The notes beneath the pieces were generated by a model. The model made no database searches and was not told the origin of the DNA. It saw nothing but the letters and a program-made list of their open reading frames with translations. A stretch of DNA of 13,527 nucleotides from a virus (lineage: Duplodnaviria > Heunggongvirae > Uroviricota > Caudoviricetes): positions 1 to 13,527 of the IMG/VR virus record IMGVR_UViG_3300000553_000021, one strand, 5' to 3'. Below, in pieces: positions 1 to 13,527 of the stretch. The position numbers were made by a program, and so were the translations under genes. Numbering within the stretch: position 1 is the stretch's first letter; each line of letters opens with the position of its first letter.

Positions 1-132
1 CAAAAGTATATTGATGTGGATAAGATATTTGAAGCAGAATTAGAAAACAAAATGGATGATTTCTATAAAGCATTAGGTTGGGAAAAATCATCATTCAGTT
101 CAAAGAAATTAGAGGAATTTTTCTCCTTTTAA
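1..132 (+). CDS. C-terminal end (partial) of phage family-B DNA polymerase (gp43-like)
   Basis: Frame 1 reads QKYIDVDKIFEAELENKMDDFYKALGWEKSSFSSKKLEEFFSF*. This matches the typical T4-like polymerase tail (YID..K.F......LGW.....LE.FF) ending in a hydrophobic clamp-binding peptide. It lies directly upstream of a clamp-like gene. Catalytic motifs are outside the window. Confidence 0.72.
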   Translation, partial: QKYIDVDKIFEAELENKMDDFYKALGWEKSSFSSKKLEEFFSF

Positions 133-164
133 TTTGGTAGATTGAAAATAAAATCGTATATTAG
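133..164 (+). promoter_or_regulatory. Bacteroidota-type primary-sigma promoter (-33 TTTG / -7 TAnnTTTG-like)
   Basis: TTTG at 133-136, 20-nt spacer, TATATTAG at 157-164 (one mismatch to TAnnTTTG), followed by an A-rich SD-less leader to ATG 189. Confidence 0.6.
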
Positions 165-188
165 ACATATAAATAAAACATAAACAAA

Positions 189-908
189 ATGAACAAAACA
201 AGAATTACCCGTTTTATCAGCAAATACAATTTAGCTGGATTGGTTGAATCAGTAGCTTGGACTACCGATGGACAAAAATTGAATACTCGTTTTATCGCAG
301 ATGATAAGACAGTATTAGGTGAAATCACTTTAGATAACTTTAACTTTGAACAAGCTGAGTTAGGTATCTATACAACTTCTAACTTAAATAAAATGTTATC
401 AGTATTAGGTGATGATGTTGATTTAGAAGTTCAAAAGGTAGAGGACAAATCTATCGCATTAGGTTTAGGTACAGATGGTATTAAGGCAGCATATCAGTTA
501 GCTGATTTAAGTGTTATTCCAAATGTTCCTGAATTAAAATCATTACCACCATTTGATGTGGAGATTGATTTAGATGGTAAGTTTATTGACAAATTCATCA
601 AAGCTAAGAACGCATTGAGTGATGTTGATACATTCACTGTCTTAACTGAAAAAGGTAATTTGAATATCGTTATGGGTTACTCAAATGTAAACTCAAACAG
701 AATTACATTCAAAGCAGCAGAAAACTATGGTACGGATGTAAAACCTATTTCATTCTCTGCAAAGTATTTGAAAGAGATTTTAACAGCTAACAAAGAAGCA
801 ACATCTGCAAAATTATTAGTATCTACAAAAGGATTAGCTCACATTCAATTCATCATTGATGATTTCGTTTGTCGCTATTACCTAGTGGAAGTGCAACTTT
901 CCGCTTAA
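189..908 (+). CDS. DNA polymerase sliding clamp (gp45/PCNA-like)
   Basis: 239 aa, the size of a two-domain trimeric clamp, with an alternating beta/alpha pattern and a C-terminal YYLV strand. Sits between the polymerase (with clamp-binding tail) and two clamp-loader subunits. The call relies heavily on context. Confidence 0.75.
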   Translation: MNKTRITRFISKYNLAGLVESVAWTTDGQKLNTRFIADDKTVLGEITLDNFNFEQAELGIYTTSNLNKMLSVLGDDVDLEVQKVEDKSIALGLGTDGIKAAYQLADLSVIPNVPELKSLPPFDVEIDLDGKFIDKFIKAKNALSDVDTFTVLTEKGNLNIVMGYSNVNSNRITFKAAENYGTDVKPISFSAKYLKEILTANKEATSAKLLVSTKGLAHIQFIIDDFVCRYYLVEVQLSA

Positions 909-932
909 TATTTTTATTTAGTAGAAGTGTAA
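876..932 (+). repeat. Imperfect in-frame direct duplication of the clamp C-terminal codons (period 36 nt)
   Basis: 876-896 TAT TAC CTA GTG GAA GTG CAA (YYLVEVQ) vs 912-932 TTT TAT TTA GTA GAA GTG TAA (FYLVEV*). 16/21 nt identical; three of the five differences are synonymous. Confidence 0.7.
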
Positions 933-947
933 CAAAATATTATTTTC

Positions 948-960
948 TTATATTTATATA
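948..960 (+). promoter_or_regulatory. Putative phage late-promoter motif TTATATTTATATA (core TATTTATA 951-958) upstream of the HNH gene
   Basis: Near-identical 13-mer TTATACTTATATA at 6950-6962 and core TATTTATA at 12715-12722, each in an intergenic gap just before a start codon. Confidence 0.5.
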
Positions 961-969
961 AAAGAATAT

Positions 970-1572
970 ATGAATTACATAAAAATATACAATCAACTAA
1001 TTGAAAATGCACAATGTAGAAATAAACCAACTTGTTATCTTGAGAAACATCATATAATTCCAAAAAGTGAAGGAGGTTCAAACAGCAATACCAATTTGGT
1101 TTATTTAACTGCAAAAGAACATTTTATAGCACATAAATTATTATATGTTATAGAACCAACAAATTACAATAGGATGATGTCATTTTTAATGATGAGTAAT
1201 CGTTTCAACACAAAATGGGGAAACACATATGAGGAAGCAAGAATATCATTTTCTGAAAATCATCATTATAAAAGTGAAAAAATTAGAATGATTATGGCAA
1301 AACCTAAAACCGAAGAGCATAAACAAAAAATATCAGCAGCACATAAAGGTAAACAAAAAACTAAAGAACATATTGAAAATATGAAAGCAAGTTTACCAGA
1401 TAGGCATGGTGAAAATAATGCAAATTATGGAAAAGGTGAACCTGTTATAATAGATGGTGTTGATTATCCAAATGTAGCTCACGCTTATAAAAAATTAGGA
1501 ATATTAAAATCAACAGCATATTATTTCTTAAAAAGTGATAAACATCCAAATTGGAAATATAAAAATAAATAA
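970..1572 (+). CDS. Free-standing HNH homing endonuclease (T4 Mob-like) with NUMOD3 repeats
   Basis: N-terminus MNYIKIYNQLI...EKHHIIPKSEGGSNSNTNLVYLTAKEHFIAHKLL is the Mob-type HNH signature. Two NUMOD3-like motifs (KTEEHKQKISAAHKG, KTKEHIENMKAS). C-terminal IIDGVDYPNVAHAYKKLGI HTH-like DNA-binding domain. Confidence 0.9.
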   Translation: MNYIKIYNQLIENAQCRNKPTCYLEKHHIIPKSEGGSNSNTNLVYLTAKEHFIAHKLLYVIEPTNYNRMMSFLMMSNRFNTKWGNTYEEARISFSENHHYKSEKIRMIMAKPKTEEHKQKISAAHKGKQKTKEHIENMKASLPDRHGENNANYGKGEPVIIDGVDYPNVAHAYKKLGILKSTAYYFLKSDKHPNWKYKNK

Positions 1573-1576
1573 AAAG

Positions 1577-1717
1577 ATGAATAATCAATTACAACAATGG
1601 CATTCAGCAGTGCATGAATCTGCCTATTTAATATCTATCGGTAAAATAGATGAAGCACAAAAACTTTTAGCTAAACTGGATTATGAATTACATGACGCAG
1701 TTAATCAATCAGCATAA
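1577..1717 (+). CDS. Small hypothetical protein (46 aa, helical)
   Basis: ATG 1577 lies 4 nt after the HNH stop and is preferred over 1535, which is inside the HNH gene. The stop overlaps the next start (TAATG). MNNQLQQWHSAVHESAYLISIGKIDEAQKLLAKLDYELHDAVNQSA. Confidence 0.6.
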   Translation: MNNQLQQWHSAVHESAYLISIGKIDEAQKLLAKLDYELHDAVNQSA

Positions 1718-3282
1718 TGAATTATACAAAGAAATATTTTTACGAAAGAAGTGATTGGTTTTATGATCCGGAAATGAATCTCAAGTACGAACAAGTGCTT
1801 GAGATGTCATTCCCTGACTTCGAAAAGTGGGTAGCCAACTTTAAGAAAACTGCATTGAAACAATGGGATGAGACTGGTGCTCCTCCTAAGATTGGTGTTA
1901 ATGAAGCAGAAATCATTGAGAATTTTTCTAAACTACAAGGTTATAAGATAACTAAGTTTGAGGAAAAAGATGATGATGGAAATGAAGTAATATTCAATTT
2001 CAATAAGTTTGCAACTCCAGTAAATCAATTCTTTCCTGCTATGTACAAAACTGCTATCGGTGGTAGTACATATGATAAACCAAAACCATCTATCTACGAA
2101 ATATTTGCATCGGATGACTATTTAGAGTTATTCACAAAGCAAATGAGAAGATTGACAAGACAAGATGGTATGTATCGTTTCTCTAAAACTCTACATAAAG
2201 ATAATCCAGAGTTCCATAATTCACACTTAACAACTGGTAAGGAGTGGATTGAGAAATGGCAAAGTGGTGATAAAGAAGATGGATTGGGATTTGCATTATC
2301 ACAAGCAGATAGTAGAATACCAAGTTTACCAATTTCAGCAGATGAAGTAAGAGAATTATACAAAAGTGGTGTGTTAGAATATAAACATATTGCATCCCTA
2401 AAAACAGCAGATTGGGGTGAGAATATAGATAACTTAGTTGATTTACCCAAACAACCAATTCAAATCAGGGTGTACCCATTGGGTCAGAGAATTTTTCCTG
2501 AAGCAACAGCCGCATTTCGAATTGGTATGGGTTCTCAACCAGCCGTAAACTTCCCACCATTAACTGCAAAGTATCTCTATGAAAGATTTACTCAACACAT
2601 TAAAGGACAGGATAAAATCAATATCTATGACCCTTCAAGTGGGTGGGGTGGTAGAATATTAGGAGCGTTAAGTGTTGGTGATAGAAACATTCACTACATT
2701 GGAAATGACCCTAATACTGAAAACCAAATACCTGAAATAGGAAAGACTCGTTATGAATACTTAGCTGAGTTCTTTAATACACAAGTACCGGGTGTTGCAA
2801 ATCCATTTTGGGGACATCAGAATACATATGAAATCTTTACAACTGGTTCAGAAATAATAGCAGATGATCCTAGATTTCAAAAGTATAAAGGACAATTAGA
2901 TTTTGTATTTACTTCTCCACCATACTTTGATAGAGAAAGATATTCAGATGATGATACACAATCATTTAAAAAATTCAATTCATATGAAAGTTGGAGAGAT
3001 GGTTTCTTAAAGCCAACCCTAACAACTGCATTTGAATATCTTAAAAATGATAGATACATTTGCTGGAACATCGCAGATATCAAAGTGGGTAAAGATAAAT
3101 GGTTTACATTAGAACAAGATAGTATTGATGTACTTACAAGTTTAGGTATGGAATACAAAGGTAAACTTAGAATGACAATGAGCCCGATGACAGGTGTAGA
3201 TTTAAGTGGTGTAAAGAACTCTATGAAATTAGAAGGAACATCATATAAATACGAACCAATTTTTATATTTTATAAACCATAA
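1717..3282 (+). CDS. Amino-type (N4-cytosine/N6-adenine) DNA methyltransferase with long N-terminal region
   Basis: SAM-binding motif I IYDPSSGWGGRILGA followed about 90 aa later by catalytic motif IV FVFTSPPYFDRERY. About 300 aa precede motif I. Confidence 0.85.
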   Translation: MNYTKKYFYERSDWFYDPEMNLKYEQVLEMSFPDFEKWVANFKKTALKQWDETGAPPKIGVNEAEIIENFSKLQGYKITKFEEKDDDGNEVIFNFNKFATPVNQFFPAMYKTAIGGSTYDKPKPSIYEIFASDDYLELFTKQMRRLTRQDGMYRFSKTLHKDNPEFHNSHLTTGKEWIEKWQSGDKEDGLGFALSQADSRIPSLPISADEVRELYKSGVLEYKHIASLKTADWGENIDNLVDLPKQPIQIRVYPLGQRIFPEATAAFRIGMGSQPAVNFPPLTAKYLYERFTQHIKGQDKINIYDPSSGWGGRILGALSVGDRNIHYIGNDPNTENQIPEIGKTRYEYLAEFFNTQVPGVANPFWGHQNTYEIFTTGSEIIADDPRFQKYKGQLDFVFTSPPYFDRERYSDDDTQSFKKFNSYESWRDGFLKPTLTTAFEYLKNDRYICWNIADIKVGKDKWFTLEQDSIDVLTSLGMEYKGKLRMTMSPMTGVDLSGVKNSMKLEGTSYKYEPIFIFYKP

Positions 3283-3284
3283 TA

Positions 3285-3713
3285 ATGAAAGTACGAATTA
3301 AAAAATTAAGTGAAAATGCAGTAATACCAACCTATGCAAAAGATGGAGATGCCGGTATGGATTTGGTAGCAACATCAATTAAGTTTGATGGTACTCAAGT
3401 TACATACGGAACAGGATTAGCAATGGAAATACCAGAAGGATTTGTAGGATTAGTGTTTCCTCGTTCATCTATACGCAAAACCGATTTATCATTGAGTAAT
3501 TCAGTAGGTGTGATTGATAGTGGTTATAGAGGTGAAATACAAGCAACTTTTAATCAAAAATCTTTATCTAAAGATGGCCAAATTTTATATGGAGTTGGTG
3601 ATAGAATTATGCAAATTATAATTATCCCATACCCACCAATTGAGTTTGAAGAAGTAGAAGAATTAAATAACACCGAAAGAGGCGAAGGTGGTTTCGGTTC
3701 AACTGGAAAATAA
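3285..3713 (+). CDS. dut: Trimeric dUTPase
   Basis: Conserved dUTPase motifs: AGMDL, FPRSS, GVIDSGYRGEI, MQIII, RGEGGFGSTG. Confidence 0.97.
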   Translation: MKVRIKKLSENAVIPTYAKDGDAGMDLVATSIKFDGTQVTYGTGLAMEIPEGFVGLVFPRSSIRKTDLSLSNSVGVIDSGYRGEIQATFNQKSLSKDGQILYGVGDRIMQIIIIPYPPIEFEEVEELNNTERGEGGFGSTGK

Positions 3714-3714
3714 T

Positions 3715-4920
3715 ATGAAAATATATTTACACGGACCATTAGATAGTCCTACTAATAGGGCTTTGTTTTACAATACAAAATATTGGAATGATTTTTCTAA
3801 AATTATCATATTAGAACCATCACATGAAATAGGTGATGAACTACGTGAAAAATTAAAAGAACATCAAACTGACTTTTTGAATAAGAATGGGTTTGTGTTA
3901 GATAAAGAATTTGATGCAATATATGAGGAGGGTATTCACATAGTACCCTCCAATATACATGGATTACAGGATAGAATAGCAGAATATGGTAGTAATAGTA
4001 AATATTATATCTTTGATACTGCTAATTTAGAGCCACTTAATATATTTGATAGTATTAAAAGAATTAAGGATAATTCAAATTGTATATTCTTTACATCACT
4101 TTGGTATGAGTTTGCAAATAAAAAATTTGATTTTGGATTTCTATTAAGAAAATTTATTTCAAATAGAATTGTATTTCAACATTATCATTGTAACGATATT
4201 TTTAAGAAAACTCCAAAACAATATCGAATGGATTTGAGTATTAGAAATTTTCCTCAAAAAGATGAAAGAATTGAATTATTAAACTCACTTAGAAATCACG
4301 CTAAAGAAAACATTTATTTAAGGGTAAATGATTATTATGTAAATAGAATGCGAGAGTTAAGAGAGTTTGCAACATTACATAATAATACAGATAAACTTAC
4401 ACAATACAAACATGAATTTTTTATTTTAGATAAGATTGATTTAAATGTAGTTAAGACGAGTGATTTAGTAGCAGGAATACAAGACCATATTGGAACACTT
4501 AAGTTATATGAAGTAACTCTATCATCGGATATTCAAATAATGTTTGAATCAAATCAAAACACATTATATAGAACTGACCCAATCGGTTATTGTAATATCA
4601 CAGAAAAAACAATAGATAATCTTTTAATAGAAAAACCATTTATAATTTGTAGTAAAGTAGCATATGTTTTTTTAAAAGAAATGGGGTTTGAAACATATGA
4701 GGATGAATTGGGTATAGATTATAATGATGTATTTGATAATTTTGATTTGACAGTTAGAAAATTAAAACAAAATATAATTCGTATATCGGAATTACCAGAG
4801 GATGAATATCAAACAATGTTATCTAAATTGATGGAAAAATCCACAATAAATAGAGCAAAATGTTTGGAATATATAGAAAATAATACTATCTTAGAGGATA
4901 TAATAAACAATAAAATATAA
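3715..4920 (+). CDS. Uncharacterised protein, possibly GT-B-fold glycosyltransferase-like (401 aa)
   Basis: ATG 3715 follows the dut stop and is preferred over 3688. C-terminal half has DIQIMFES...NITEKT..LLIEKPFII...FLKEMGFETY, resembling the ITEK/KPF/GF.T nucleotide-sugar-binding region of GT10/YkvP-like GT-B proteins. The ORF is certain; the function is tentative. Confidence 0.45.
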   Translation: MKIYLHGPLDSPTNRALFYNTKYWNDFSKIIILEPSHEIGDELREKLKEHQTDFLNKNGFVLDKEFDAIYEEGIHIVPSNIHGLQDRIAEYGSNSKYYIFDTANLEPLNIFDSIKRIKDNSNCIFFTSLWYEFANKKFDFGFLLRKFISNRIVFQHYHCNDIFKKTPKQYRMDLSIRNFPQKDERIELLNSLRNHAKENIYLRVNDYYVNRMRELREFATLHNNTDKLTQYKHEFFILDKIDLNVVKTSDLVAGIQDHIGTLKLYEVTLSSDIQIMFESNQNTLYRTDPIGYCNITEKTIDNLLIEKPFIICSKVAYVFLKEMGFETYEDELGIDYNDVFDNFDLTVRKLKQNIIRISELPEDEYQTMLSKLMEKSTINRAKCLEYIENNTILEDIINNKI

Positions 4921-4923
4921 ATT

Positions 4924-5874
4924 ATGAGTTTCTTTGAACAAGACAAATCAGTAAAACAAGAAAACACATTGTGGGTAGAAAAATATAGACCACAAACTTT
5001 AAACGATTATATAGGAAATGAACTTCTTAAAGAAAAAGTTCAATCTTATTTAGATAATAATGATGTTCCACATTTACTTCTTTATGGTAAAGCAGGTACA
5101 GGTAAAACAACATTGGCAAAAATCATAGCAAACACAATTGAATGTGATTATATGGTAATAAATGCATCAGATGAAAACAATGTTGAGACAGTACGAAATA
5201 AAGTAAAGAATTTTGCAAGTGGTGCAGGTTTCAAAGGATTCAAAATCATTATATTAGATGAGTTTGATTATATGACACCAAACGCACAGGCAATCCTTCG
5301 TAACTTAATGGAAACATTCAGTAGACACACTAGATTCATTCTAACTTGTAACTATCATGAAAAAATTATCGAACCAATTTTAAGTAGATGTCAAACTTTT
5401 GCAGTAAATCCACCATCTAAAAAAGAAGTGGCAGTTCATGTAACTGATATCTTAACTAAAGAGAGTATTAAGTATGATATTAAAGATGTAGCAGATATTA
5501 TTAGTAGTTTTTATCCAGATATTAGAAGGATTATGAATACCTGCCAATTACAATCATCTAAAGGTGAATTAAAGGTAGATAGACAAACTATATTGCAAGC
5601 CGATTTCAAAAATAAAATTGTAGATATTTTGGCAAGTGGTGAGGAAAAACGAAATGCATATGGACAAATTAGACAATTGGTGGGGGATAATAAAGTAAAT
5701 GATTTTGCAGAACTTTATTCAGCATTATACGAAAGATTAGATGATTATGCAAATGGAAATACAGCAAATGTAATCTTAGAATTATCACAAGGACAATTTA
5801 GAGATGCATTGGTTATAGATAAAGAAATATGTTTTATGGCAACAATTATAGCAATTATTAACATTATAAAATAA
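4924..5874 (+). CDS. Clamp loader AAA+ ATPase subunit (RFC small subunit / T4 gp44-like)
   Basis: LWVEKYRP box, Walker A GKAGTGKT, INASDE, Walker B IILDEFD, SRC arginine-finger motif, DIRR. Confidence 0.93.
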   Translation: MSFFEQDKSVKQENTLWVEKYRPQTLNDYIGNELLKEKVQSYLDNNDVPHLLLYGKAGTGKTTLAKIIANTIECDYMVINASDENNVETVRNKVKNFASGAGFKGFKIIILDEFDYMTPNAQAILRNLMETFSRHTRFILTCNYHEKIIEPILSRCQTFAVNPPSKKEVAVHVTDILTKESIKYDIKDVADIISSFYPDIRRIMNTCQLQSSKGELKVDRQTILQADFKNKIVDILASGEEKRNAYGQIRQLVGDNKVNDFAELYSALYERLDDYANGNTANVILELSQGQFRDALVIDKEICFMATIIAIINIIK

Positions 5875-5879
5875 AGAAT

Positions 5880-6188
5880 ATGAGTAAAGAGTTTCAATTA
5901 GCAAAACCAATTGGAGATAGATTATTATTAGAGATCGAAGTTACTGAAAAAACAATTGGTGGTATTATTATCCCAGATTCAGTAAAAACAGGTGATAACA
6001 AAATTGCAAAAGTAGTAGCAACGGGTGACGGGGTTTATACACAGGGTGGTGTTAAAGTTCCTATGACAGTAAAGGTAGGTGATAAAGTATTATTACCAAC
6101 AAGTGAAATGGCAGTACAAAAGATTAAGTTAGGAGATAAGGACTACTTTATGTGTAGAGAAATGGACTTATTATTAGTAATTAGATAA
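5880..6188 (+). CDS. groES: Co-chaperonin GroES/Cpn10
   Basis: KPIGDRLLL, mobile loop TIGGIIIPD, AKVVATGDG, VPMTVKVGDKVL, C-terminal REMDLLLVI; 102 aa. Confidence 0.92.
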   Translation: MSKEFQLAKPIGDRLLLEIEVTEKTIGGIIIPDSVKTGDNKIAKVVATGDGVYTQGGVKVPMTVKVGDKVLLPTSEMAVQKIKLGDKDYFMCREMDLLLVIR

Positions 6189-6198
6189 AACATATATT

Positions 6199-6456
6199 AT
6201 GCAACCAATGGATTTAAGCAAGTTAGGGCAATCACAACAAGCACCAGCAGATTTAAGTAAAACAACCGCAATTGAATGTAAATGTGGAGGACAATTTTTC
6301 TCACCTGGATTACATTTTAGAAAAGAAAGTGCATTAGCAAGTGCAAGTGGAAAAGAACAAGTTATTCCAGTAGAAATTTATTTATGTATTGATTGTGGTG
6401 AAGTATTAGAAGATTTATTACCAAAAGAATTAAGACCAGATAATGGCGAAAATTAA
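6199..6456 (+). CDS. Small zinc-ribbon protein
   Basis: 85 aa with CKC and CIDC cysteine pairs about 35 aa apart. Overlaps the next gene by 14 nt. Confidence 0.7.
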   Translation: MQPMDLSKLGQSQQAPADLSKTTAIECKCGGQFFSPGLHFRKESALASASGKEQVIPVEIYLCIDCGEVLEDLLPKELRPDNGEN

Positions 6457-6931
6457 AAAAGAAACAAACGAAGTTACAGCAAAGAGATTGGGTTTATTTG
6501 ACCATATCTCAGCTGTAACCGAATATCAAGATCCAAATTATTGGAAAAATATTTCTGATGATGATAAAAAAACCTTTGGTAATTTTATTATTCAAAGATA
6601 TCTATCTATGAATCCTGATTGGATAGAATGGATAGCAGATGTTCAACCATATATTCAATCTCTACCTAATGAATATTTTTATCGTTTTTTTATTGATATG
6701 ATTCCACCTAAAAAATATTATTTAAAATATATTAAAGGTAAGAAAGCAAATGATTATGAAGATTGGATAGTTGATTTAATTGTTAAAGAATATAAATGTT
6801 CAACAAAAGAAGCAAATGATTATTTGGAAATTTTATATTCAACTAAAAATGGTAGAGAACAAATTCTTAATATTTGCAACAAATATGGTATCGAAAAGAA
6901 ATTGATAACATCCTTAAAATTAAAAATCTGA
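6443..6931 (+). CDS. Clamp loader A subunit (T4 gp62-like)
   Basis: LFDHISAV...FIIQRYLSM...YFYRFFIDMIPPKKYYLKYIK...LIVKEYKCSTKEANDYLEIL follows the gp62 family pattern. 162 aa, near the gp44-like ATPase. Confidence 0.8.
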   Translation: MAKIKKETNEVTAKRLGLFDHISAVTEYQDPNYWKNISDDDKKTFGNFIIQRYLSMNPDWIEWIADVQPYIQSLPNEYFYRFFIDMIPPKKYYLKYIKGKKANDYEDWIVDLIVKEYKCSTKEANDYLEILYSTKNGREQILNICNKYGIEKKLITSLKLKI

Positions 6932-6938
6932 TAATAAT

Positions 6939-6983
6939 CATATGTTCCTTTATACTTATATAGGTAAAAGGAGTTAACATATG
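6939..6983 (+). promoter_or_regulatory. RBS/AUG-sequestering hairpin with putative late promoter (TACTTATA 6953-6960) in its loop
   Basis: CATATGTT (6939-6946) is the exact reverse complement of AACATATG (6976-6983, includes the ATG). CCTTT (6947-6951) pairs with AAAGG (6967-6971, SD-like AAAGGAG 6967-6973). Confidence 0.62.
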
Positions 6984-7625
6984 AAAGCAAAGTTATTAAA
7001 AATTGATTGGAAGCACTATTTTGAAATAGGTATCCTTAGTTTATTTGGTGCATGGGTTATATTTGCACTATGTTTTTCATTATATGCAGTTGGTTTGCAT
7101 TTTTTTGGTGGGGAAGGCCAAGAACAATCATTAGCAAATCAATTTAGCTGGAAATTTGATGGAACATTCAAAAATAGTCCAGGTAACATTTGGTATAATG
7201 CAGATGAACAAATTTGGGTAGAAAGTGTAACTAACGAAGTTAAAATAGGTAAGTTAGCTGGTAATAGAAAATTAGAATTTGGTGTTAAGAATATTTTAGA
7301 AGAATATTTACAAGATAAGGGATATAATTTATCTCCAAATGCACCAAACAAATTATCAGTTCAAATCATCTTTTTAGATGTTTTAAATACAAAGAAAAAT
7401 ATTTCCGTTTTCCATAGTGGTGAAGAGGAAGTTGTTATCCGTTTGAGAGGTGTATTAAAATCTCAAGGTAAAAAGGATAAGGTAGTTATAGTAGAAGAGT
7501 CCTCATCTGAAATTTCAATGAGCACATTGATAGTTGACGAAGGTGGTAGTTTCAATCAAACAAGTTTAAGTAATGCACTTAAAAAAGGTTGTGACAAGCT
7601 AATCACAAAACTATCGGAGAAATAA
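6981..7625 (+). CDS. Membrane-anchored protein with possible CsgG/HfaB-like (TolB-N-type alpha/beta) domain
   Basis: N-terminal TM helix (IGILSLFGAWVIFALCFSLYAVGLHFF). Then strand-helix (FGVKNILEEYLQDKGY), two hairpin-like segments (VLNTKKNISVFHSGEEEVVIRLRG; IVEESSSEISMSTLIV) and a final helix (SLSNALKKGCDKLI), in the same order as CsgG-family proteins. Fold call by pattern only. Confidence 0.45.
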   Translation: MKAKLLKIDWKHYFEIGILSLFGAWVIFALCFSLYAVGLHFFGGEGQEQSLANQFSWKFDGTFKNSPGNIWYNADEQIWVESVTNEVKIGKLAGNRKLEFGVKNILEEYLQDKGYNLSPNAPNKLSVQIIFLDVLNTKKNISVFHSGEEEVVIRLRGVLKSQGKKDKVVIVEESSSEISMSTLIVDEGGSFNQTSLSNALKKGCDKLITKLSEK

Positions 7626-9296
7626 ATGAAAAAATTATTAGGATTGGTATGGGTATTTTTATTAATATCTCTATCATCTTTTAGTCAATTAGTAATTAAC
7701 CAATCTTACTCACCATCAACTAATTTGAAAGTTGGTGATACCATTACGGTAACTTATAATGTGAGTGGAGCATCCAGAGCAAGATATGTGTGGTTAAGAT
7801 ATCAATACAATTCAGCAGCAATGAGTATGGTATCTAACAGCACTACATTTGGACAAGGTAACTCTACTCAAACATATTTTTATGAGTGGACAAATTATAT
7901 ATTCAATCCAAACGCAAATTCAGCAACAACTGATTTGTATGGACAATATGGACATACACCTTGGAATTATGTATCAACAACTGGAAACAATGTTGGACAA
8001 TTGACAGTTCAAAGAACGGATAAAGCAATTACAGGAACATTAGCAACTCAAAAATTTGTATTAAAAGATATCGCTTCTTATTCAAATGTTCACAAATTGG
8101 ATTTAGCATATGCGTTGGATAGTGCAACTGGAGCAAACATATCAAGTGTAACAACAACACAATCTACACTTTCATTAGGAACTGTCACAGGAGCAACATC
8201 GGCATTTACTATTAAAGTATTATATCCATCAACATATACAAATATTAATCAACACAATGTTCAATTGATGCATGTTAAAGCAGATGGTAGTATTGATTGG
8301 ACTCAACAACCAATTAAAGTAGGTTCATTGGATGCAAGTGGTATGGTAACATTCACATCTGGTATTAAAGTGGGTGATAGTGTTGGTGTATTTATTACTC
8401 CAGCTTATCAAAAAACATTTATGGATAATATTGTGACTGTTGCAGATGCATATAAAGCATTCTTAGGCATTTCACAAACCGATATTACCGGTGCACAAAC
8501 ATATTGGACATATCCTAAATTGGAAAAAATGATTGGTATGGTTGGTAAAGGTGATACTGCATTTACTGAAAAAGACCCTTATTATTTATTTGCATATGTA
8601 ATGGGGCAAGATATGAGTTCAGTAGCAAATATCCCGACATCAACTGCAACAAATATAGCATGGCATAGTGGATTATTAAATCAAAGTTGGTTAGATGGCA
8701 CACCTACTTATAGAATTTATGTAACTTCACCAAATCAAACAGTCAACGCAGTATATGCATGGGGTGGTGATATGGCATTTAATGAATCTCCATCACCGGC
8801 ACAAATTAATGTAAGTATTAATAATGGTGTTTATACAAATTCTGATAAAGTAATACCAACAACTTCTGCTACAATTAAATCATTCTCAATTAAATCTAAT
8901 GCAACATTGGCATATGACCCAGCACCATTAGATACGGCAAACTTAAACATCAATTCATCAATTGTAAATGGTAAGGTAATTTTAACTGCTAATTTAACAA
9001 AACAAAACTTAGCAGGTTTACAAGTTATTATGAATTATGATTCTACTAAATTAAGTTTGGATAATGTAACATTTGATGCAGGAAGCACAATAACAAACTT
9101 TTCAACTCACAATAACGGAAGATTAACATTTGGTTCAATTGACCAGATTAAAACTGCTAGAATTAAAACAGGAACTCCGTATACATTGACATTTACTCCA
9201 AAAGTTCCTTTATCAAATACGGCAGGTTTATTCTTCTTTGTATTGGCTGATGCAGTTGATGCAAGTGGTAATAAAATTAACCTGAATATTGAGTAA
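7626..9296 (+). CDS. Secreted protein: cohesin-like / beta-sandwich / degenerate dockerin-like / cohesin-like
   Basis: Sec signal MKKLLGLVWVFLLISLSSFS|Q. N-terminal LKVGDTITVTYNV...WLRYQYNSAAM cohesin-like start. Central VTVADAYKAF and AWGGD motifs. C-terminal AGLQVIMNYDSTKLSL...LTFGS...YTLTF...DAVDASG cohesin-like domain. Ser/Thr/Asn-rich. Confidence 0.65.
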   Translation: MKKLLGLVWVFLLISLSSFSQLVINQSYSPSTNLKVGDTITVTYNVSGASRARYVWLRYQYNSAAMSMVSNSTTFGQGNSTQTYFYEWTNYIFNPNANSATTDLYGQYGHTPWNYVSTTGNNVGQLTVQRTDKAITGTLATQKFVLKDIASYSNVHKLDLAYALDSATGANISSVTTTQSTLSLGTVTGATSAFTIKVLYPSTYTNINQHNVQLMHVKADGSIDWTQQPIKVGSLDASGMVTFTSGIKVGDSVGVFITPAYQKTFMDNIVTVADAYKAFLGISQTDITGAQTYWTYPKLEKMIGMVGKGDTAFTEKDPYYLFAYVMGQDMSSVANIPTSTATNIAWHSGLLNQSWLDGTPTYRIYVTSPNQTVNAVYAWGGDMAFNESPSPAQINVSINNGVYTNSDKVIPTTSATIKSFSIKSNATLAYDPAPLDTANLNINSSIVNGKVILTANLTKQNLAGLQVIMNYDSTKLSLDNVTFDAGSTITNFSTHNNGRLTFGSIDQIKTARIKTGTPYTLTFTPKVPLSNTAGLFFFVLADAVDASGNKINLNIE

Positions 9297-11188
9297 TGAA
9301 GAAACTACTTCTTATATTATTTTTATTAATTAGTTCAATAATAACCTACTCTCAAGGAGTGGGTTATTTGAATTATACGGTCTATAATATTATTAGTAAT
9401 GGAGCAGGCCAATATGCTAATAATGCAAATGATTTTGTTAATATGTTTGATGTTACAAAGGGTGCAACGATTTATGCAAGTGGAACATCAACAGCAGCAA
9501 AAACATTATATTTCAATGGTAGTTGGCAACCTTCTGGACTTCCCAATGGGGCCAATTATACTGGTATTAAAATAACTGGATATTTTGTCCCAAAAGAAAC
9601 GGGAACATACATATTTGGTATTGATGGAGATGATGGTGTAGATTTTTCTTTGAATGGAAATGTTGTAACATCTTATTATGGACCACATGGATTTGGTGGT
9701 TATAGATATGGTTCGGTAAATTTAGTCGCAGGTCAATCTTATACCTTTATGGCAAGATTTGAAAACTGGGGTGGTGGATGGGGTATGTATTTAGTTTGGA
9801 AAAGACCTTCACAAACAACATACACAACTCAAGGAGATGAAGTATATTCAACTCCACCTGCATCACCAACTAAAAAGGGATTGGTTGATTTTAATTTCAA
9901 TACAAATATAGATGCAACTAAATTTTCAGTAGGAAATACATTGAGTTCAACAGGTACGGTTGATATTACAAATCAATTAGATAGTAATAAAATTGTAAAT
10001 GGATATAAAGCAGGAATTACCGCCGGACAAACCGAATGGAGTTATGTGAATATATCTAATGGAACAACAACTCTTTATATAGATTTAAGAGAATTTGGCA
10101 ACACAACACCATCGACAGTTAATAGTGTTTCAATATTGGATGTATATAATGGACCGGTAACATATCAAAGTAGTGATATCTATTGGGCACATTATACTAT
10201 TCCATCAACATTAACAAAAGTAACCGATGGTAGTTCAACATATAATTCAAATATAAGAAATGCCGGATATAATAATTATGCATTCTCTTGTAATGTAGGA
10301 TTTACAGCAAATCAAATATACAAACCACAGACAATATCAGTATCAACCACAAACAATTTAACAACATTGTATAATAGTATTGTGACTGTATCGGATGTTT
10401 ATCAAGCATTCCAAGAATATTCAAATCAAGGTTTATTCGGTAATCAAACTGGAACATCTTTTACATATGGTATTCAATATCAAAACGCAGACATAGATGG
10501 AAATGGTGTTTTTGATGAAAATGATTGTTTCTTATTATTACAAAATTTGACAGGTGCAAAACCATTGGTAGATACATTCAATCTAAACAAAACATTAAGA
10601 ATTATACCACAATCAACATACGATATGATTGGTAAATCAAATTGGAATACTTTTACAAATCCATTAGGTAGTTCATATACATTTGATATAAACACAGGTA
10701 AATCAACTGATACTATAAATTTAGCAGTAGCTTGGAAAGGTGATGTAAACTTATCACATTCAACAACACCTATATCGAATAGTTATACAACAATGGCATT
10801 AAAATCAACGAGTATTACCAATCAAATCAATGCATCTATCTTAACTGAAATGGTGGGTGATAGTATTTACGCATATATTACCATAGATCCATTGACACAA
10901 TCTTTAGTTGGTACACAATTCCAATTAAACTATGATAATTCTTTGTTAAAGTTTAATGGAGTAAAGTTCACTACAAAAGGTTCACCTACTAATTACGCAA
11001 CTGATAAGGGTACTTATATTAGTGTAGGTTCATTACTTACAAATGGTGGTACTTTGGATAATACAACACAATACACACTATCATTTTTAGCTAATACAAA
11101 GTTGGATAATATATTGGGGTTAATATCAATAGGTGCAACGGATGCAGTTAATCAAAATGGAACACAATTAAAAGTGGTGGTAAACTAA
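9296..11188 (+). CDS. Secreted PA14 (GLEYA-like) lectin-domain protein with dockerin-like EF-hand and C-terminal cohesin-like domain
   Basis: Sec signal MKKLLLILFLLISSIITYS|Q. PA14 pattern ITGYFVPKETGTYIFGIDGDDGVDFSLNG...GSVNLVAGQSY...FENWGGG...LVWKRP. Dockerin-type ADIDGNGVFDENDCFLLL (about 10487-10540). AWKGDVN. C-terminal VGTQFQLNYDNSLLKF...DAVNQNG cohesin-like domain. Confidence 0.75.
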   Translation: MKKLLLILFLLISSIITYSQGVGYLNYTVYNIISNGAGQYANNANDFVNMFDVTKGATIYASGTSTAAKTLYFNGSWQPSGLPNGANYTGIKITGYFVPKETGTYIFGIDGDDGVDFSLNGNVVTSYYGPHGFGGYRYGSVNLVAGQSYTFMARFENWGGGWGMYLVWKRPSQTTYTTQGDEVYSTPPASPTKKGLVDFNFNTNIDATKFSVGNTLSSTGTVDITNQLDSNKIVNGYKAGITAGQTEWSYVNISNGTTTLYIDLREFGNTTPSTVNSVSILDVYNGPVTYQSSDIYWAHYTIPSTLTKVTDGSSTYNSNIRNAGYNNYAFSCNVGFTANQIYKPQTISVSTTNNLTTLYNSIVTVSDVYQAFQEYSNQGLFGNQTGTSFTYGIQYQNADIDGNGVFDENDCFLLLQNLTGAKPLVDTFNLNKTLRIIPQSTYDMIGKSNWNTFTNPLGSSYTFDINTGKSTDTINLAVAWKGDVNLSHSTTPISNSYTTMALKSTSITNQINASILTEMVGDSIYAYITIDPLTQSLVGTQFQLNYDNSLLKFNGVKFTTKGSPTNYATDKGTYISVGSLLTNGGTLDNTTQYTLSFLANTKLDNILGLISIGATDAVNQNGTQLKVVVN

Positions 11189-11538
11189 TGAAATGGATTA
11201 AAATTATAATAGCTTGTTGTATCATTTTTATAATATCTTGTCAAAAAGTATTAGTAGCACCGGTACAAGTAAAAACTAATAATGTATTTGATAATGCACA
11301 AAATAGTATTACAAATGGACAGGAAATACAATTCAATTTAACTAAAGATGGGGTGTATACATTAAGTTTGACCGATACAATTACCAACCAAGTTGTGACA
11401 AGAGAAAGATTTAATGGACAAATTGGAATAAATAAAAAGAAAATATACACTAAAGGGATAGAAAGTAAATATTTATATCTGTTATTGGAAGATGTTACAA
11501 AAAATAAAATAAGTAAAACAACAATAATAATAAATTAA
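11188..11538 (+). CDS. Lipoprotein consisting of a T9SS-CTD/FlgD-Ig-like domain
   Basis: Lipoprotein signal ending IIS-C18. Body IQFNLTKDGVYTLSLTDTITNQVV...GIN...IYTKGIESKYLYLLL...KTTIIIN follows the type A CTD pattern (I.F.L...G...L...D..G.VV...G.....L..G.Y.....K.II.). Confidence 0.6.
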   Translation: MKWIKIIIACCIIFIISCQKVLVAPVQVKTNNVFDNAQNSITNGQEIQFNLTKDGVYTLSLTDTITNQVVTRERFNGQIGINKKKIYTKGIESKYLYLLLEDVTKNKISKTTIIIN

Positions 11539-11539
11539 A

Positions 11540-11920
11540 ATGAGAAGAATAGATAAAATATTAGGATTAGGATTTTTAGTATCTTTAATCGCATTGAGTT
11601 GTAGAAAATCAATCGATTCAGTAGTATCTAATCCTGCACAAAATCCATTAACAATTACATCTTCGGTAGGTGTAGCATTACAAACAACATTTGTAACAAC
11701 CGATGTTAAGATGAATGTTAAAAGTGATGCAGCACAGACTGTGACTGTAAAAATATTAGATATTGCAAATAGAGTAGTTTCTAAATCAACTTCTGATGTA
11801 GTAAGTGGAGATAACATATTGACGGTTTATGCAGCAGCATTACCAACAGCAGCTTATAGATTAGCAGTATATGATAGTAAAGGTAATTTATTGGCAATAA
11901 CAGATTTTAACAAAATATAA
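11540..11920 (+). CDS. Lipoprotein consisting of a T9SS-CTD (Por secretion tail)-like domain
   Basis: Lipoprotein signal ending ALS-C21. VKMNVKSDAAQTVTVKILDIANRVV...SGDNILTVYAAALPTAAYRLAV...TDFNKI closely follows the type A CTD consensus (V...I.D..GR.V; L..G.Y...; terminal K). Paralogous to the preceding gene. Confidence 0.68.
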   Translation: MRRIDKILGLGFLVSLIALSCRKSIDSVVSNPAQNPLTITSSVGVALQTTFVTTDVKMNVKSDAAQTVTVKILDIANRVVSKSTSDVVSGDNILTVYAAALPTAAYRLAVYDSKGNLLAITDFNKI

Positions 11921-11926
11921 CAATTT

Positions 11927-12292
11927 ATGGCAAAGGCAAAAAAAGAGCAAACACCAGAAGAGGTGATGGCTAAAAATGAAAAACACAATGATGGTACAAT
12001 GAGCGGTTTGAAAAAAACTATTATTGGTACAGTCGGTACATTGGTAACAGCAGGTGGTGCATTTTTAATGACATACTTACAAAAACCAAAAGAAGGGGAT
12101 GCTAAACAAGCTCAACCTCAAAGTATTAATATCAATATTCCAGCACAACAACAAGCAGCTGGTGGTAAGACGGTTATTATTAAAGAAAAAGGACCGGCTG
12201 ACAAAGATGTAAAAAAAGCAGAAAAATCAGAACAACCAAAACCTAAAAAGAAAGAGGGTGATGAGTTCAAAGAAAAACCTGCTCAATGGTAA
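11927..12292 (+). CDS. Single-pass membrane protein with low-complexity Lys/Glu/Pro/Gln tail
   Basis: One TM segment TIIGTVGTLVTAGGAFLMTYL. Short beta-like motifs SININIP and KTVIIKE. Charged, disordered C-terminus ending in Trp. Confidence 0.75.
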   Translation: MAKAKKEQTPEEVMAKNEKHNDGTMSGLKKTIIGTVGTLVTAGGAFLMTYLQKPKEGDAKQAQPQSININIPAQQQAAGGKTVIIKEKGPADKDVKKAEKSEQPKPKKKEGDEFKEKPAQW

Positions 12293-12387
12293 TATATTAT
12301 CAAATAGGAACGGTAATATTTTTTATAGGAATATTATCATTTCTTATTAGATGGTCTTTAAAAACACAAAACAAAACAAAGGAGTAA
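12286..12387 (+). CDS. Small single-TM protein (33 aa), not in ORF track
   Basis: ATG 12286 overlaps the upstream stop (ATGGTAA). Translates MVIYYQIGTVIFFIGILSFLIRWSLKTQNKTKE*: a 20-aa hydrophobic helix with a basic tail. It fills the otherwise unexplained 99-nt gap. Confidence 0.6.
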   Translation: MVIYYQIGTVIFFIGILSFLIRWSLKTQNKTKE

Positions 12388-12391
12388 CAAG

Positions 12392-12670
12392 ATGACTTTT
12401 AAGCAATGGGTAATTGACCTTTTCAAAGATGAAAGAGGTGCAATTTCAGTAAAACCAGTTATCGCATTTTTTGGTGCATTATTTTTATGTATCACTATGA
12501 TTGCGAATAGCTATTCTGCTAAAGATATCGCTCCATCTGATAAGTTAGTTGATGCTGTAATGGTTATAACTGCAATCGGTATGGGTGCTGATAGTTTAGA
12601 CAAATTCAGTAAGAAGGCGCCTGCAGATGAACCAACAACACCAGCAGCACCAACTGAAGAATTAGGTTAA
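12392..12670 (+). CDS. Two-TM membrane protein, holin-like
   Basis: Two hydrophobic segments (VIAFFGALFLCITMIANSY; LVDAVMVITAIGMGADSL), an N-terminal D..G..S.K motif and an acidic Pro/Ala tail. SD-like AAAGGAG at 12378-12384. No endolysin in the window, so holin function is unproven. Confidence 0.5.
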   Translation: MTFKQWVIDLFKDERGAISVKPVIAFFGALFLCITMIANSYSAKDIAPSDKLVDAVMVITAIGMGADSLDKFSKKAPADEPTTPAAPTEELG

Positions 12671-12687
12671 TAATTAATTAACATTAG

Positions 12688-12715
12688 AAACCCTCACAAT
12701 TAGTGGGGGTTTTTT
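12688..12715 (+). terminator. Rho-independent terminator closing the envelope-protein operon
   Basis: Stem AAACCCTCAC / GTGGGGGTTT (one G-U pair), loop AATTA, T-run 12710-12715. Confidence 0.88.
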
Positions 12716-12722
12716 ATTTATA
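12715..12722 (+). promoter_or_regulatory. Putative late-promoter core TATTTATA overlapping the terminator T-tract
   Basis: Same core as 951-958 and 6953-6960; 3 nt before ATG 12726. Confidence 0.42.
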
Positions 12723-12725
12723 CCT

Positions 12726-13421
12726 ATGAATAACTTATTAACAATAGTAATACCGTGTAAAAACGAAAAGGATAACATATATGAGTGTATTGGATTTATT
12801 GCAAAGCAAGTGGGGTTCGCAGGAACTAGAGTTATTATTGCAGATACTTCCGATGAAGGTGATAGCTTAGATTTTTTATATTATGTTAAACGAGATTTTA
12901 AGTATTGTTTAAATATTGAAATTATCGAAGGTGGATTTCCAGCTAAAGCACGTTTAGAAGGTAGTAAATTAGTAACTACACCTTATATTCTTTTTTTAGA
13001 TGCTGATATAATGTTGCAAAATAGATTTGTATTAGGTGAATGTTTAGCATATAATACAGATTTGGTGACAGTTCCATTTCAAACAGAAGAAGGGTTTAAT
13101 TGGATATTTCGTTTATTTGATATTCAACAAAAAATGAGTAATTGGTTAGGAACACCATTTGCCATAGGTGGATTTCAATTATGGAAAACTGAAGCATATT
13201 GGAAAACCGGTGGGTATGATGAAACACATTTATTTGCAGAAGATTATTGGGTATCACAAAAAGCAGATGTAATGAAACTACATAATACCAAAGGAGTATG
13301 GACATCGGCAAGAAGATTTAAAAATAAAGGATTTTTCTATATGTTTTTAATCAGTATAAAATGCTATATCAATCGAAACAACACAAATTTCTTTAAACAA
13401 CATCACAACTATTGGACATGA
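12726..13421 (+). CDS. Family 2 (GT-A) glycosyltransferase
   Basis: LTIVIPCKNE, VIIAD, LFLDADI (DxD), GGFQLW...GGYDE, AEDY, TSARRF. Confidence 0.92.
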   Translation: MNNLLTIVIPCKNEKDNIYECIGFIAKQVGFAGTRVIIADTSDEGDSLDFLYYVKRDFKYCLNIEIIEGGFPAKARLEGSKLVTTPYILFLDADIMLQNRFVLGECLAYNTDLVTVPFQTEEGFNWIFRLFDIQQKMSNWLGTPFAIGGFQLWKTEAYWKTGGYDETHLFAEDYWVSQKADVMKLHNTKGVWTSARRFKNKGFFYMFLISIKCYINRNNTNFFKQHHNYWT

Positions 13422-13527
13422 AATATCAGGCAGTAATCGTATCGGATTTACATTTAGGAACAAAAGATAGTAAAGCAGAAGAATTTTTAGATTTTATTGA
13501 ACAACATCCAACCGACCTTTTAATCCT
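13418..13527 (+). CDS. Partial calcineurin-like metallophosphoesterase, PlcP/LpxH2-like (N-terminus only)
   Basis: ATGA overlap with the GT2 stop. MKYQAVIVSDLHLGTKDSKAEEFLDFIEQHPTDLLI contains the DxHLG metal-binding motif and the A..(F/L)LDF..H pattern of LpxH2/PlcP proteins. Truncated by the window end. Confidence 0.75.
   Translation, partial: MKYQAVIVSDLHLGTKDSKAEEFLDFIEQHPTDLLI

Follow-up and report, generated by a model that had tools for sequence, protein, structure and literature searches.

Aquatic T4-like phages are known to carry operons for exported proteins, and the closest described systems are the curli-like CsgG/CsgF gene clusters of pelagimyophages, whose function is unknown (PMC7029224). 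Here we analysed positions 1 to 13,527 of the IMG/VR virus record IMGVR_UViG_3300000553_000021, a stretch of 13,527 nucleotides (nt) that we refer to in full as the window. It makes up the first 13.5 kb of its contig, which is 79.8 kb long, has a GC content of 30% and carries almost all of its genes on the same strand. At 6981-12670 the window carries seven tightly packed open reading frames (ORFs) on the plus strand, O1-O7, which abut or overlap by one base and which we call the cassette (Table 1). The cassette genes are real, phage-borne and linked, and together they encode an exported, lectin-bearing set of proteins. We propose, with about equal weight for and against, that they form a conserved phage module, probably expressed late, through which a glycan-binding assembly is placed in the envelope of Flavobacterium-type cells during infection.

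Like the pelagimyophage clusters (PMC7029224), the cassette is an exported-protein operon situated beside the replication module of a T4-like aquatic phage, and it combines a protein of predicted CsgG-type fold with two unknown proteins of similar size. However, the pelagimyophage proteins are true CsgG/CsgF homologs of proteobacterial origin (PMC7029224), whereas the window has only a small periplasmic domain predicted to share that fold, and the cassette cargo consists of lectin/cohesin/dockerin proteins, unlike that of the curli cluster. Cohesin-dockerin scaffolds, both cellulosomal and non-cellulosomal, share with the cassette a C-terminal cohesin fold and, next to a paired helix, a putative Ca loop of the F-hand type, but here enzymes are missing, both modules lie on one chain, the genes are phage-encoded and act in a Gram-negative host, and the dockerin candidate appears degenerate. 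Adhesins of the Bacteroidota type IX secretion system (T9SS) have lectin-type heads and T9SS-bearing hosts in common with the cassette products, and the best matches of O2 in AlphaFold DB and among viral structures are proteins annotated with a T9SS sorting domain. The cargo of that system ends in a type A C-terminal domain (CTD), whereas O2 and O3 stop at a cohesin domain, and the nearest thing to a T9SS CTD in the cassette is found in the stand-alone proteins O4 and O5, whose scores fall short of the family cutoffs. Finally, T5 Llp and F-plasmid TraT are likewise small outer-membrane lipoproteins encoded by mobile elements, which change surface acceptance, and TraT has the fold of O1 (Z 9.8), but the cassette has no sequence kinship to Llp, O1 is not a lipoprotein, and the cassette is multi-part and includes lectins.

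DNA and protein searches of cultured phages with the window, O1, O2 and O3 gave no match, and a related block in Flavobacterium phage immuto_2-6A (vB_FspM_immuto_2-6A, host Flavobacterium sp. LMO8) was reached through profile searches. In this phage gp16 is homologous to O6 (hidden Markov model E 4.9e-19) and gp19 to the O1 domain (E 2e-9), gp17 and gp18 correspond to proteins encoded further along our contig at 14409-15128 (50% identity) and 16010-17497, and the block also contains a C-type lectin protein and a cohesin protein, all of its products being exported. It differs in being compact, in having a separate cohesin protein with a true T9SS CTD (E 4.6e-10) and in lacking O4/O5-type lipoproteins and O7. 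Because the immuto_2-6A block sits on an unrelated backbone of the PolA type, the gene comparison indicates that the module moves between phage lineages. The immuto_2-6A record annotates the block by domain names only, and we found no functional study of it in the literature. Nor did we find a description of phage lectin/cohesin/dockerin modules there, the pelagimyophage curli cluster being the nearest find. The original prediction that no characterised phage operon has this combination of genes therefore stands as far as the literature goes, but a cultured relative does carry a related block. We found no published description of such a phage module, and a phage strategy of this kind is uncharacterised.

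Architecture and conservation of the cassette

The original prediction described eight consecutive ORFs, bounded by a hairpin and a terminator, whose products all carry an export or membrane signal and have no recognisable enzymatic motif. Seven of these, O1-O7, were recovered at the predicted positions, whereas the eighth, a hydrophobic ORF that meets O6 in an ATGGTAA overlap, is doubtful because the nearest relatives keep only 33 nt between O6 and O7. At its place 52 loci have a gene for a protein of ~202 amino acids (aa) with two transmembrane (TM) helices and an acidic, Cys-bearing tail (for example, L073 13504-14112); a remnant of this gene was looked for in the window and none was detected. 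Coordinates, RNA fold and terminator scan agree on a run of abutting or overlapping ORFs between the hairpin and the terminator, the latter being the sole terminator-like site within 6400-13527 and closing the O1-O7 unit. Every solid product has a TM segment, a signal peptide or a lipobox, with O6 only weakly hydrophobic, and searches of all cassette products against Pfam, PHROGs and NCBIfam matched no enzymatic family.

Table 1 Coordinates of the cassette genes and of the elements at its borders (window numbering)
Feature	Position	Strand	Description
RNA hairpin	6938-6984	+	-15.6 kcal/mol, z -4.9; 0/200 shuffles as good
O1	6981-7625	+	214 aa; TM helix and periplasmic alpha/beta domain
O2	7626-9296	+	556 aa; signal peptide, two beta-sandwiches, dockerin-like region, cohesin-like end
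O3	9296-11188	+	630 aa; signal peptide, PA14 head, dockerin-like module, cohesin-like end
O4	11188-11538	+	116 aa; lipoprotein, small beta-sandwich domain
O5	11540-11920	+	126 aa; lipoprotein, DUF3244 / T9SS-CTD-like beta-sandwich
O6	11927-12292	+	121 aa; small protein with weakly hydrophobic segment
Doubtful hydrophobic ORF	12286-12387	+	33 codons; ATGGTAA overlap with O6
O7	12392-12670	+	92 aa; small membrane protein
Intrinsic-terminator-like hairpin with T run	12686-12714	+	fold -16.2 kcal/mol, z -3.8

Searches of IMG/VR retrieved 78 loci with O3 and 55 loci with O1. In a synteny count that took in related viral loci with at least five of the seven cassette genes (n=97), the O1-O7 order was kept in 97/97 loci, all seven genes were present in 61/97, and 76 distinct O2 sequences were represented; junctions across the collinear loci measured 0-30 nt. 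The cassette order stays the same in loci whose flanks differ, including those in which the replication genes are absent, are not next to the cassette or follow it. Collinearity of this extent is far more than would be expected by chance, and co-occurrence of the genes in related phages, which had been set as a check beforehand, was thereby borne out. In metagenomes the O1 family alone comprises 3937 protein clusters, all of them unnamed.

Synteny among related phages is by itself no proof of joint function, and the cassette might not be one system at all but a series of exported 'moron' genes that have nothing to do with one another and stay side by side through the conserved backbone alone, a view to which the tolerance of insertions at three junctions lends some colour. 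We consider this improbable, since the gene order survives changes in the flanks, homologs of O1 and O6 are grouped with lectin/cohesin proteins in the unrelated PolA-type Flavobacterium phage, and a single unit is consistent with the overlap of stops with starts and with the presence of just one promoter and one terminator.

The three junctions that accept insertions lie after O3, where 46 loci encode a secreted barrel-like protein of ~297 aa, after O5, where some relatives encode a secreted protein of ~484 aa that contains a long Ser/Ala/Gly linker and ends in a barrel-like part (L074 1491-2942), and before O7, where the ~202-aa two-TM protein is found. The ~297-aa protein (for example, L053 11262-12155) has a C-terminus reading ..NFKF, like outer-membrane barrels; it is not recognisable as PorP/SprF. 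In relatives the block extends into a small TM gene, secreted proteins of ~240 aa and ~270 aa and a barrel protein of 435-543 aa. The same extension families occur further down this contig at 14409-15128 and 16010-17497 (14409-17497 being L001 1010-4098), with a GT2 glycosyltransferase and a metallophosphoesterase inserted between O7 and these genes, which places the cassette within a more extensive envelope island. The first of the two encodes a 239-aa secreted protein, the counterpart of immuto gp17, with a C-terminal stretch resembling the O1 family, and the second a secreted protein of 495 aa that resembles immuto gp18 and has a barrel-like C-terminal part; two small lipoprotein-like ORFs are also present in this stretch. 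The predicted unit thus holds as a block but not in its boundary, since related exported genes recur at 14409-17497. For O6, O7 and the ~297-aa, ~484-aa, ~202-aa and 239-aa proteins, no family was found in PHROGs, NCBIfam or Pfam.

Domains and export signals of the cassette products

O2 and O3 carry classical signal peptides. In both proteins and in all their orthologs the signal peptide stops directly ahead of a Gln, a feature typical of Bacteroidota. In O2, two beta-sandwich domains (residues 22-165 and 175-258) are followed by a helical, poorly modelled and degenerate dockerin-like region (residues 264-345) and by a cohesin-like domain (residues 435-556, nt 8928-9293); the AF2 model has a predicted local distance difference test (pLDDT) score of 72.6. 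The C-terminal sandwich of O2 matched solved cohesins in Foldseek searches (E ~1e-6, TM-score 0.6-0.69 by target) and reached 21.7 bits against the Pfam Cohesin family PF00963 (cutoff 24.1), and the same family matched 21/61 O3 homologs at E <= 1e-3, with L111 at 24.9 bits exceeding the cutoff of 24.1. By fold and profile, the C-terminal ends of O2 and O3 are therefore cohesin-like. The orthologs of O2 are 51-62% identical over their full length, and O2 and O3 are paralogous over their last ~300 residues (26% identity, E 3e-11). O3 consists of a PA14 head (residues 65-177, nt 9488-9826; PF07691 E 1.8e-12, 47.7 bits versus a cutoff of 24), a dockerin-like module with one DIDGNGVFDEND loop (DxDxNGxxDxxD, residues 399-410, nt 10490-10525) and paired helices, and a cohesin-like end at residues 534-629. 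Among the 61 O3 homologs the head is exchanged, being Lectin_C (C-type lectin) in 36, PA14 in 15 and LCCL in 9. The pair of secreted cohesin/dockerin-like paralogs that had been proposed, one of them with PA14, was thus recovered, with the dockerin likeness weak, and the lectin heads and Foldseek matches identify the large proteins as glycan-binding types with a cohesin-like end. Neither the contig nor a related 251-kb IMG/VR contig has other ORFs with cohesin, dockerin or lectin modules, and longer or fused forms of O2 were searched for without success, although such a negative is weak evidence.

C-type lectin, PA14 and dockerin-type modules belong to extracellular types that depend on Ca. 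This counts for an explanation in which the periplasm is a folding room, the lectin/cohesin proteins being exported to fold with Ca2+ and disulfides and then freed at lysis, whereupon they would bind debris, neighbouring cells or polysaccharide, or dock onto virions. The Sec signals of O2 and O3, unaccompanied by a recognisable outer-membrane export tag, and the probably late timing agree with it. However, such a role does not account for the lipoproteins, which are co-conserved and bear a surface-export motif, or for the optional outer-membrane barrel genes and the membrane proteins, and the 251-kb relative encodes no other cohesin/dockerin ORF that could serve as the receiver on the virion; we regard this explanation as unlikely.

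The lipoproteins O4 and O5 have the lipoboxes IISC and ALSC, respectively, and a lipobox is kept in all homologs of both. With the signals removed, hhalign aligned O4 to O5 at a probability of 97% (E 6e-11), identifying them as paralogs. Lys occupies position +3 in 68/73 members of the O4 family and 63/69 of the O5 family, and Asp or Glu occupies position +5 in 55/73 and 51/69, respectively. The two families read x-K-x/D-D/E after the Cys, a pattern that at the family level fits C-X-K-(D/E)2-X, the lipoprotein export signal (LES) defined experimentally in Capnocytophaga (PMC5080379). Both proteins had been described as T9SS-CTD-like lipoproteins, of which the lipoprotein part is upheld, the CTD likeness is remote, weak and sub-threshold, and membership of the CTD family is not borne out. 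DUF3244 matched 40/41 O5 homologs, all below the cutoff, and Por_Secre_tail matched 26/41 at E <= 0.05 and 0 above the cutoff, while O5 itself scored 16.1 bits against PF18962 (cutoff 27) and E 0.31 against TIGR04183. When compared by hhalign with 18 true CTDs from a metagenome-assembled genome (MAG) of Schleiferiaceae, O5 reached a probability of 55% and O4 one of 25%, versus at most 1.3% for three control domains. O4 and O5 stand alone rather than at the C-terminus of a cargo protein, and a search for fused longer forms of O5 found none, again weak evidence.

Complex prediction for the C-terminal part of O2 with O4 and O5 gave an ipSAE of 0.41, as opposed to 0.00 for the best of 3 controls, among them one with O5 replaced, in a calibration in which 58/80 solved complexes and 2/110 mismatches reached the mark and passes at or below 0.60 are wrong more often than they are right. 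At least 57% of contacts were common to the runs, the partner pLDDT was 51 or higher, and the model lends weak support to binding of O4/O5 by the C-terminal part of O2. On this basis O4 and O5 might be a secretion or anchoring tag in trans, gripping the cohesin end of the tag-less O2 and O3 and carrying or holding them at the surface. They would then replace the cis T9SS CTD that the immuto cohesin protein still bears, and the cohesin/dockerin modules could chain the lectins into a coat; we think such a tag rather unlikely.

O1 has a single, strong TM helix (residues 12-44) and a periplasmic domain of ~140 residues (71-214) predicted to have the LptE/CsgG/PelC/YajG fold. The LptE/CsgG/PelC fold is known from accessory lipoproteins of the outer membrane, and several of these assemble into rings. 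Its sole Pfam match is the YajG-like family PF03923 (22.4 bits, cutoff 25), which matches 37/45 members of the O1 family below or near the cutoff (best E 2.4e-6). The language-model neighbours of O1 include PF03923/LptE clusters auto-named CsgG, and a profile search against solved structures gave chance matches only. Divergent O1 orthologs have a cleavable type I signal that ends ..NAQ, with K next and without Cys, and because they encode the TM part as a separate gene after O7, the O1 of the window is a fusion of the TM part and the domain.

The original prediction called O1 CsgG-like, and one could accordingly picture a curli-type (type VIII) secretion system, as in pelagimyophages, with O1 as the CsgG channel. 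CsgG is indeed the top structural match of O1 (VIA-align with 6lqh: Z 11.5, root mean square deviation 3.2 over 129 residues, obtained with a model of pLDDT 57), the two secreted paralogs of similar size echo CsgA/CsgB, and the pelagimyophages provide a precedent (PMC7029224). The name is apt only at the level of the fold, where LptE, PelC, PqiC and TraT come within 1-2 Z of CsgG (range 10-11.5, TraT 9.8) and so tie with it. We rejected O1 as a true CsgG, as it lacks the lipobox and the membrane hairpins, has no match to Pfam CsgG PF03783 at E <= 1 and has a domain of ~140 rather than ~260 residues. Moreover, no CsgF or CsgE was found, and O2 and O3 consist of several folded domains rather than of amyloid repeats; we give a curli-type system hardly any credence.

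No family could be assigned to the two small proteins at the 3' end of the cassette. O6 has a charged N-terminus, a conserved Gly/Thr-rich weakly hydrophobic segment and a Lys/Glu/Pro-rich low-complexity tail ending in Trp; O7 has one strong TM segment (residues 16-42) and an N-terminal half that is 70-86% identical across the clade. Small membrane proteins that are conserved clade-wide and probably expressed late raise the question of lysis or egress, in which they and the lipoproteins would be holin/antiholin and spanin-like parts and the large proteins accessory. Outer-membrane lipoproteins lie beside a bitopic protein, as in two-component spanins, O4 and O6 weakly matched spanin2_2 (E 0.04) and the hol-like phrog_2658 (E 0.099), respectively, and a candidate lysis enzyme is encoded inside the extended island of relatives. 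However, the spanin and holin matches are not significant, O6 has no coiled coil, and swappable lectin heads would be senseless for lysis. The reading is further weakened by a separate hol-like gene (phrog_2658, E 1.3e-10), which overlaps a candidate enzyme gene at contig 26816-27959, 14 kb off, and we judge a lytic role of the cassette to be quite unlikely.

In that distant locus (L001 13417-14560), the hol-like protein gene overlaps the start of the gene for a 276-aa protein, whose homolog in L009 has a weak match to Pfam AAT (C45-type hydrolase). The two genes are a candidate lysis pair apart from the cassette.

Candidate late promoter and phage context

The hairpin at the 5' border of the cassette pairs the Shine-Dalgarno sequence and the AUG of O1, and it holds the motif TATACTTATA (6951-6960) in its loop. 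TATA[CT]TTATA occurs in 6 copies in the contig, all on the plus strand and 0 on the other (positions 949, 6951, 14121, 24337, 35411 and 37660); 5/6 copies lie 21-33 nt 5' of a called start, and the sixth is inside an ORF called at 14118, ~24 nt 5' of an internal ATG at 14145. Its core, ATATTTAT, is retained 5' of O1 among divergent relatives, where a terminator often stands immediately before it. In one relative, G004, the strict motif stands 5' of the tail tube gene, the baseplate hub gene and one envelope gene; directly upstream of gp23 it was absent in two relatives. As a promoter signal, the T4 late motif TATAAATA was rejected, its occurrences in the contig having no strand or position bias.

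In T4, the genes e, soc and I-TevI have a late promoter within a hairpin which, on longer transcripts, masks the start site. A transcript begun past the motif at O1 would be without the left arm of the hairpin, an arrangement that would match the T4 e/soc/I-TevI layout. TATA[CT]TTATA is probably the late promoter of this clade, and late expression of the cassette is likely, given that the motif of O1 also precedes tail genes in a relative. Of the gated late promoter that had been predicted, the hairpin was thus confirmed and the late-promoter reading is plausible.

The genes 5' of the cassette encode a T4-type sliding clamp gp45, an HNH homing endonuclease, a methyltransferase-like protein, dUTPase, the clamp loader gp44, GroES and gp62, the small subunit of the clamp loader, and the nearest cultured phages by clamp loader, ~40% identical, are T4-like phages of the cyanophage type. 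Related IMG/VR contigs of 234 and 251 kb, estimated to be 70-75% complete, have genes for the T4 gp23 capsid protein, the tail tube and the baseplate hub. Because gp45, gp44 and gp62 lie in the window and gp23, tail and baseplate genes in its relatives, gene content identifies the source as a fragment of a jumbo T4-like phage and not a bacterial island, as the original prediction had it.

The stretch occurs in freshwater metagenomes from 2012 onwards, and the phage is a large, uncultured, lake-dwelling one whose hosts are probably Flavobacterium-type bacteria. A host among the Flavobacteriia is indicated by the signal peptides that end before Gln, by the lipoprotein export motif and by a contig binned in a Schleiferiaceae MAG. 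This contig, L132 (3.4 kb), supplied the only match of the O2 family among species-representative genomes, at 59% identity, and probably represents a piece of phage DNA that was binned together with the host; as a clue to the host, the binning is only a hint. The MAG in question holds at least 18 T9SS type A CTD proteins.

Two observations concern the replication module. The HNH homing-endonuclease gene at 970-1572 is absent, together with its flanks (window 909-1716), from the 98-99% identical relatives L005, L006 and L008, in which the methyltransferase-like gene starts 3 nt past the clamp gene; the gene looks like a recent insertion and brings its own TATATTTATA motif at 949. Within window 3285-4920, the dUTPase is 68% and a 401/410-aa unknown gene 55% identical to relatives, with flanks at 98-99%, which suggests a swapped segment.

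Proposed role at the host envelope

We propose that O2 and O3 would fold in the periplasm and associate via their cohesin and dockerin-like modules, and that O4 and O5, whose family bears a Bacteroidota surface-exposure signal, would hold them at the outer membrane. O1, with the fold of ring-forming outer-membrane accessory lipoproteins, O6 and O7 may act as assembly or anchoring factors. The assembly could coat host-type surface sugars, such that the infected cell and its debris would adsorb no phage; masking of this kind would provide superinfection exclusion and progeny protection, and the swapping of O3 heads would track the glycan type of the host. Masking of host surface sugars is the most likely purpose that we can name, yet it is a guess, and one that we would sooner expect to be wrong than right.

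Several findings weigh against an assembly displayed at the cell surface late in infection. The chains of O2 and O3 stop at the cohesin domain and have neither a T9SS CTD nor a recognised route across the outer membrane, and the two proteins may therefore stay periplasmic. The window proteins O4 (CQKVLV, without acidic residues) and O5 (CRKSID) deviate from the export motif, and the complex score of O2 with O4 and O5 is only a weak pass. Dockerin type I PF00404 matches 2/61 O3 homologs (best E 3.3e-4), and the module is degenerate in O2. The structure model of O1 is of low confidence, with a pLDDT of 57, and the late timing rests on a motif common to two identified structural genes.

Surface lipoproteins combined with glycan binders are also the layout of Sus systems (PMC5080379), and the cassette might instead provide a Sus-like set of glycan binders at the surface, which would nourish the infected cell in concert with a TonB-dependent transporter of the phage. 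The contig does encode an 843-aa exported protein, a candidate TonB-dependent transporter, as well as a secreted nuclease homologous to immuto gp12. However, the candidate transporter lies ~20 kb away in a separate cassette, the SusC/SusD families are unmatched in the block, and late timing fits feeding poorly, all of which makes nutrient capture very unlikely.

If the proposal of a glycan-binding envelope assembly is true, abundant lake phages would re-dress the surface of their host late in infection with a sugar-binding scaffold of their own. This would bear on the loss of progeny to debris and superinfection, on the aggregation of infected cells and on surface export without a cis T9SS tag in Bacteroidota. 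The existence of a cultured Flavobacterium phage with a related block makes the proposal testable, and the swappable lectin heads of O3 would then be a sequence read-out of host surface glycans.

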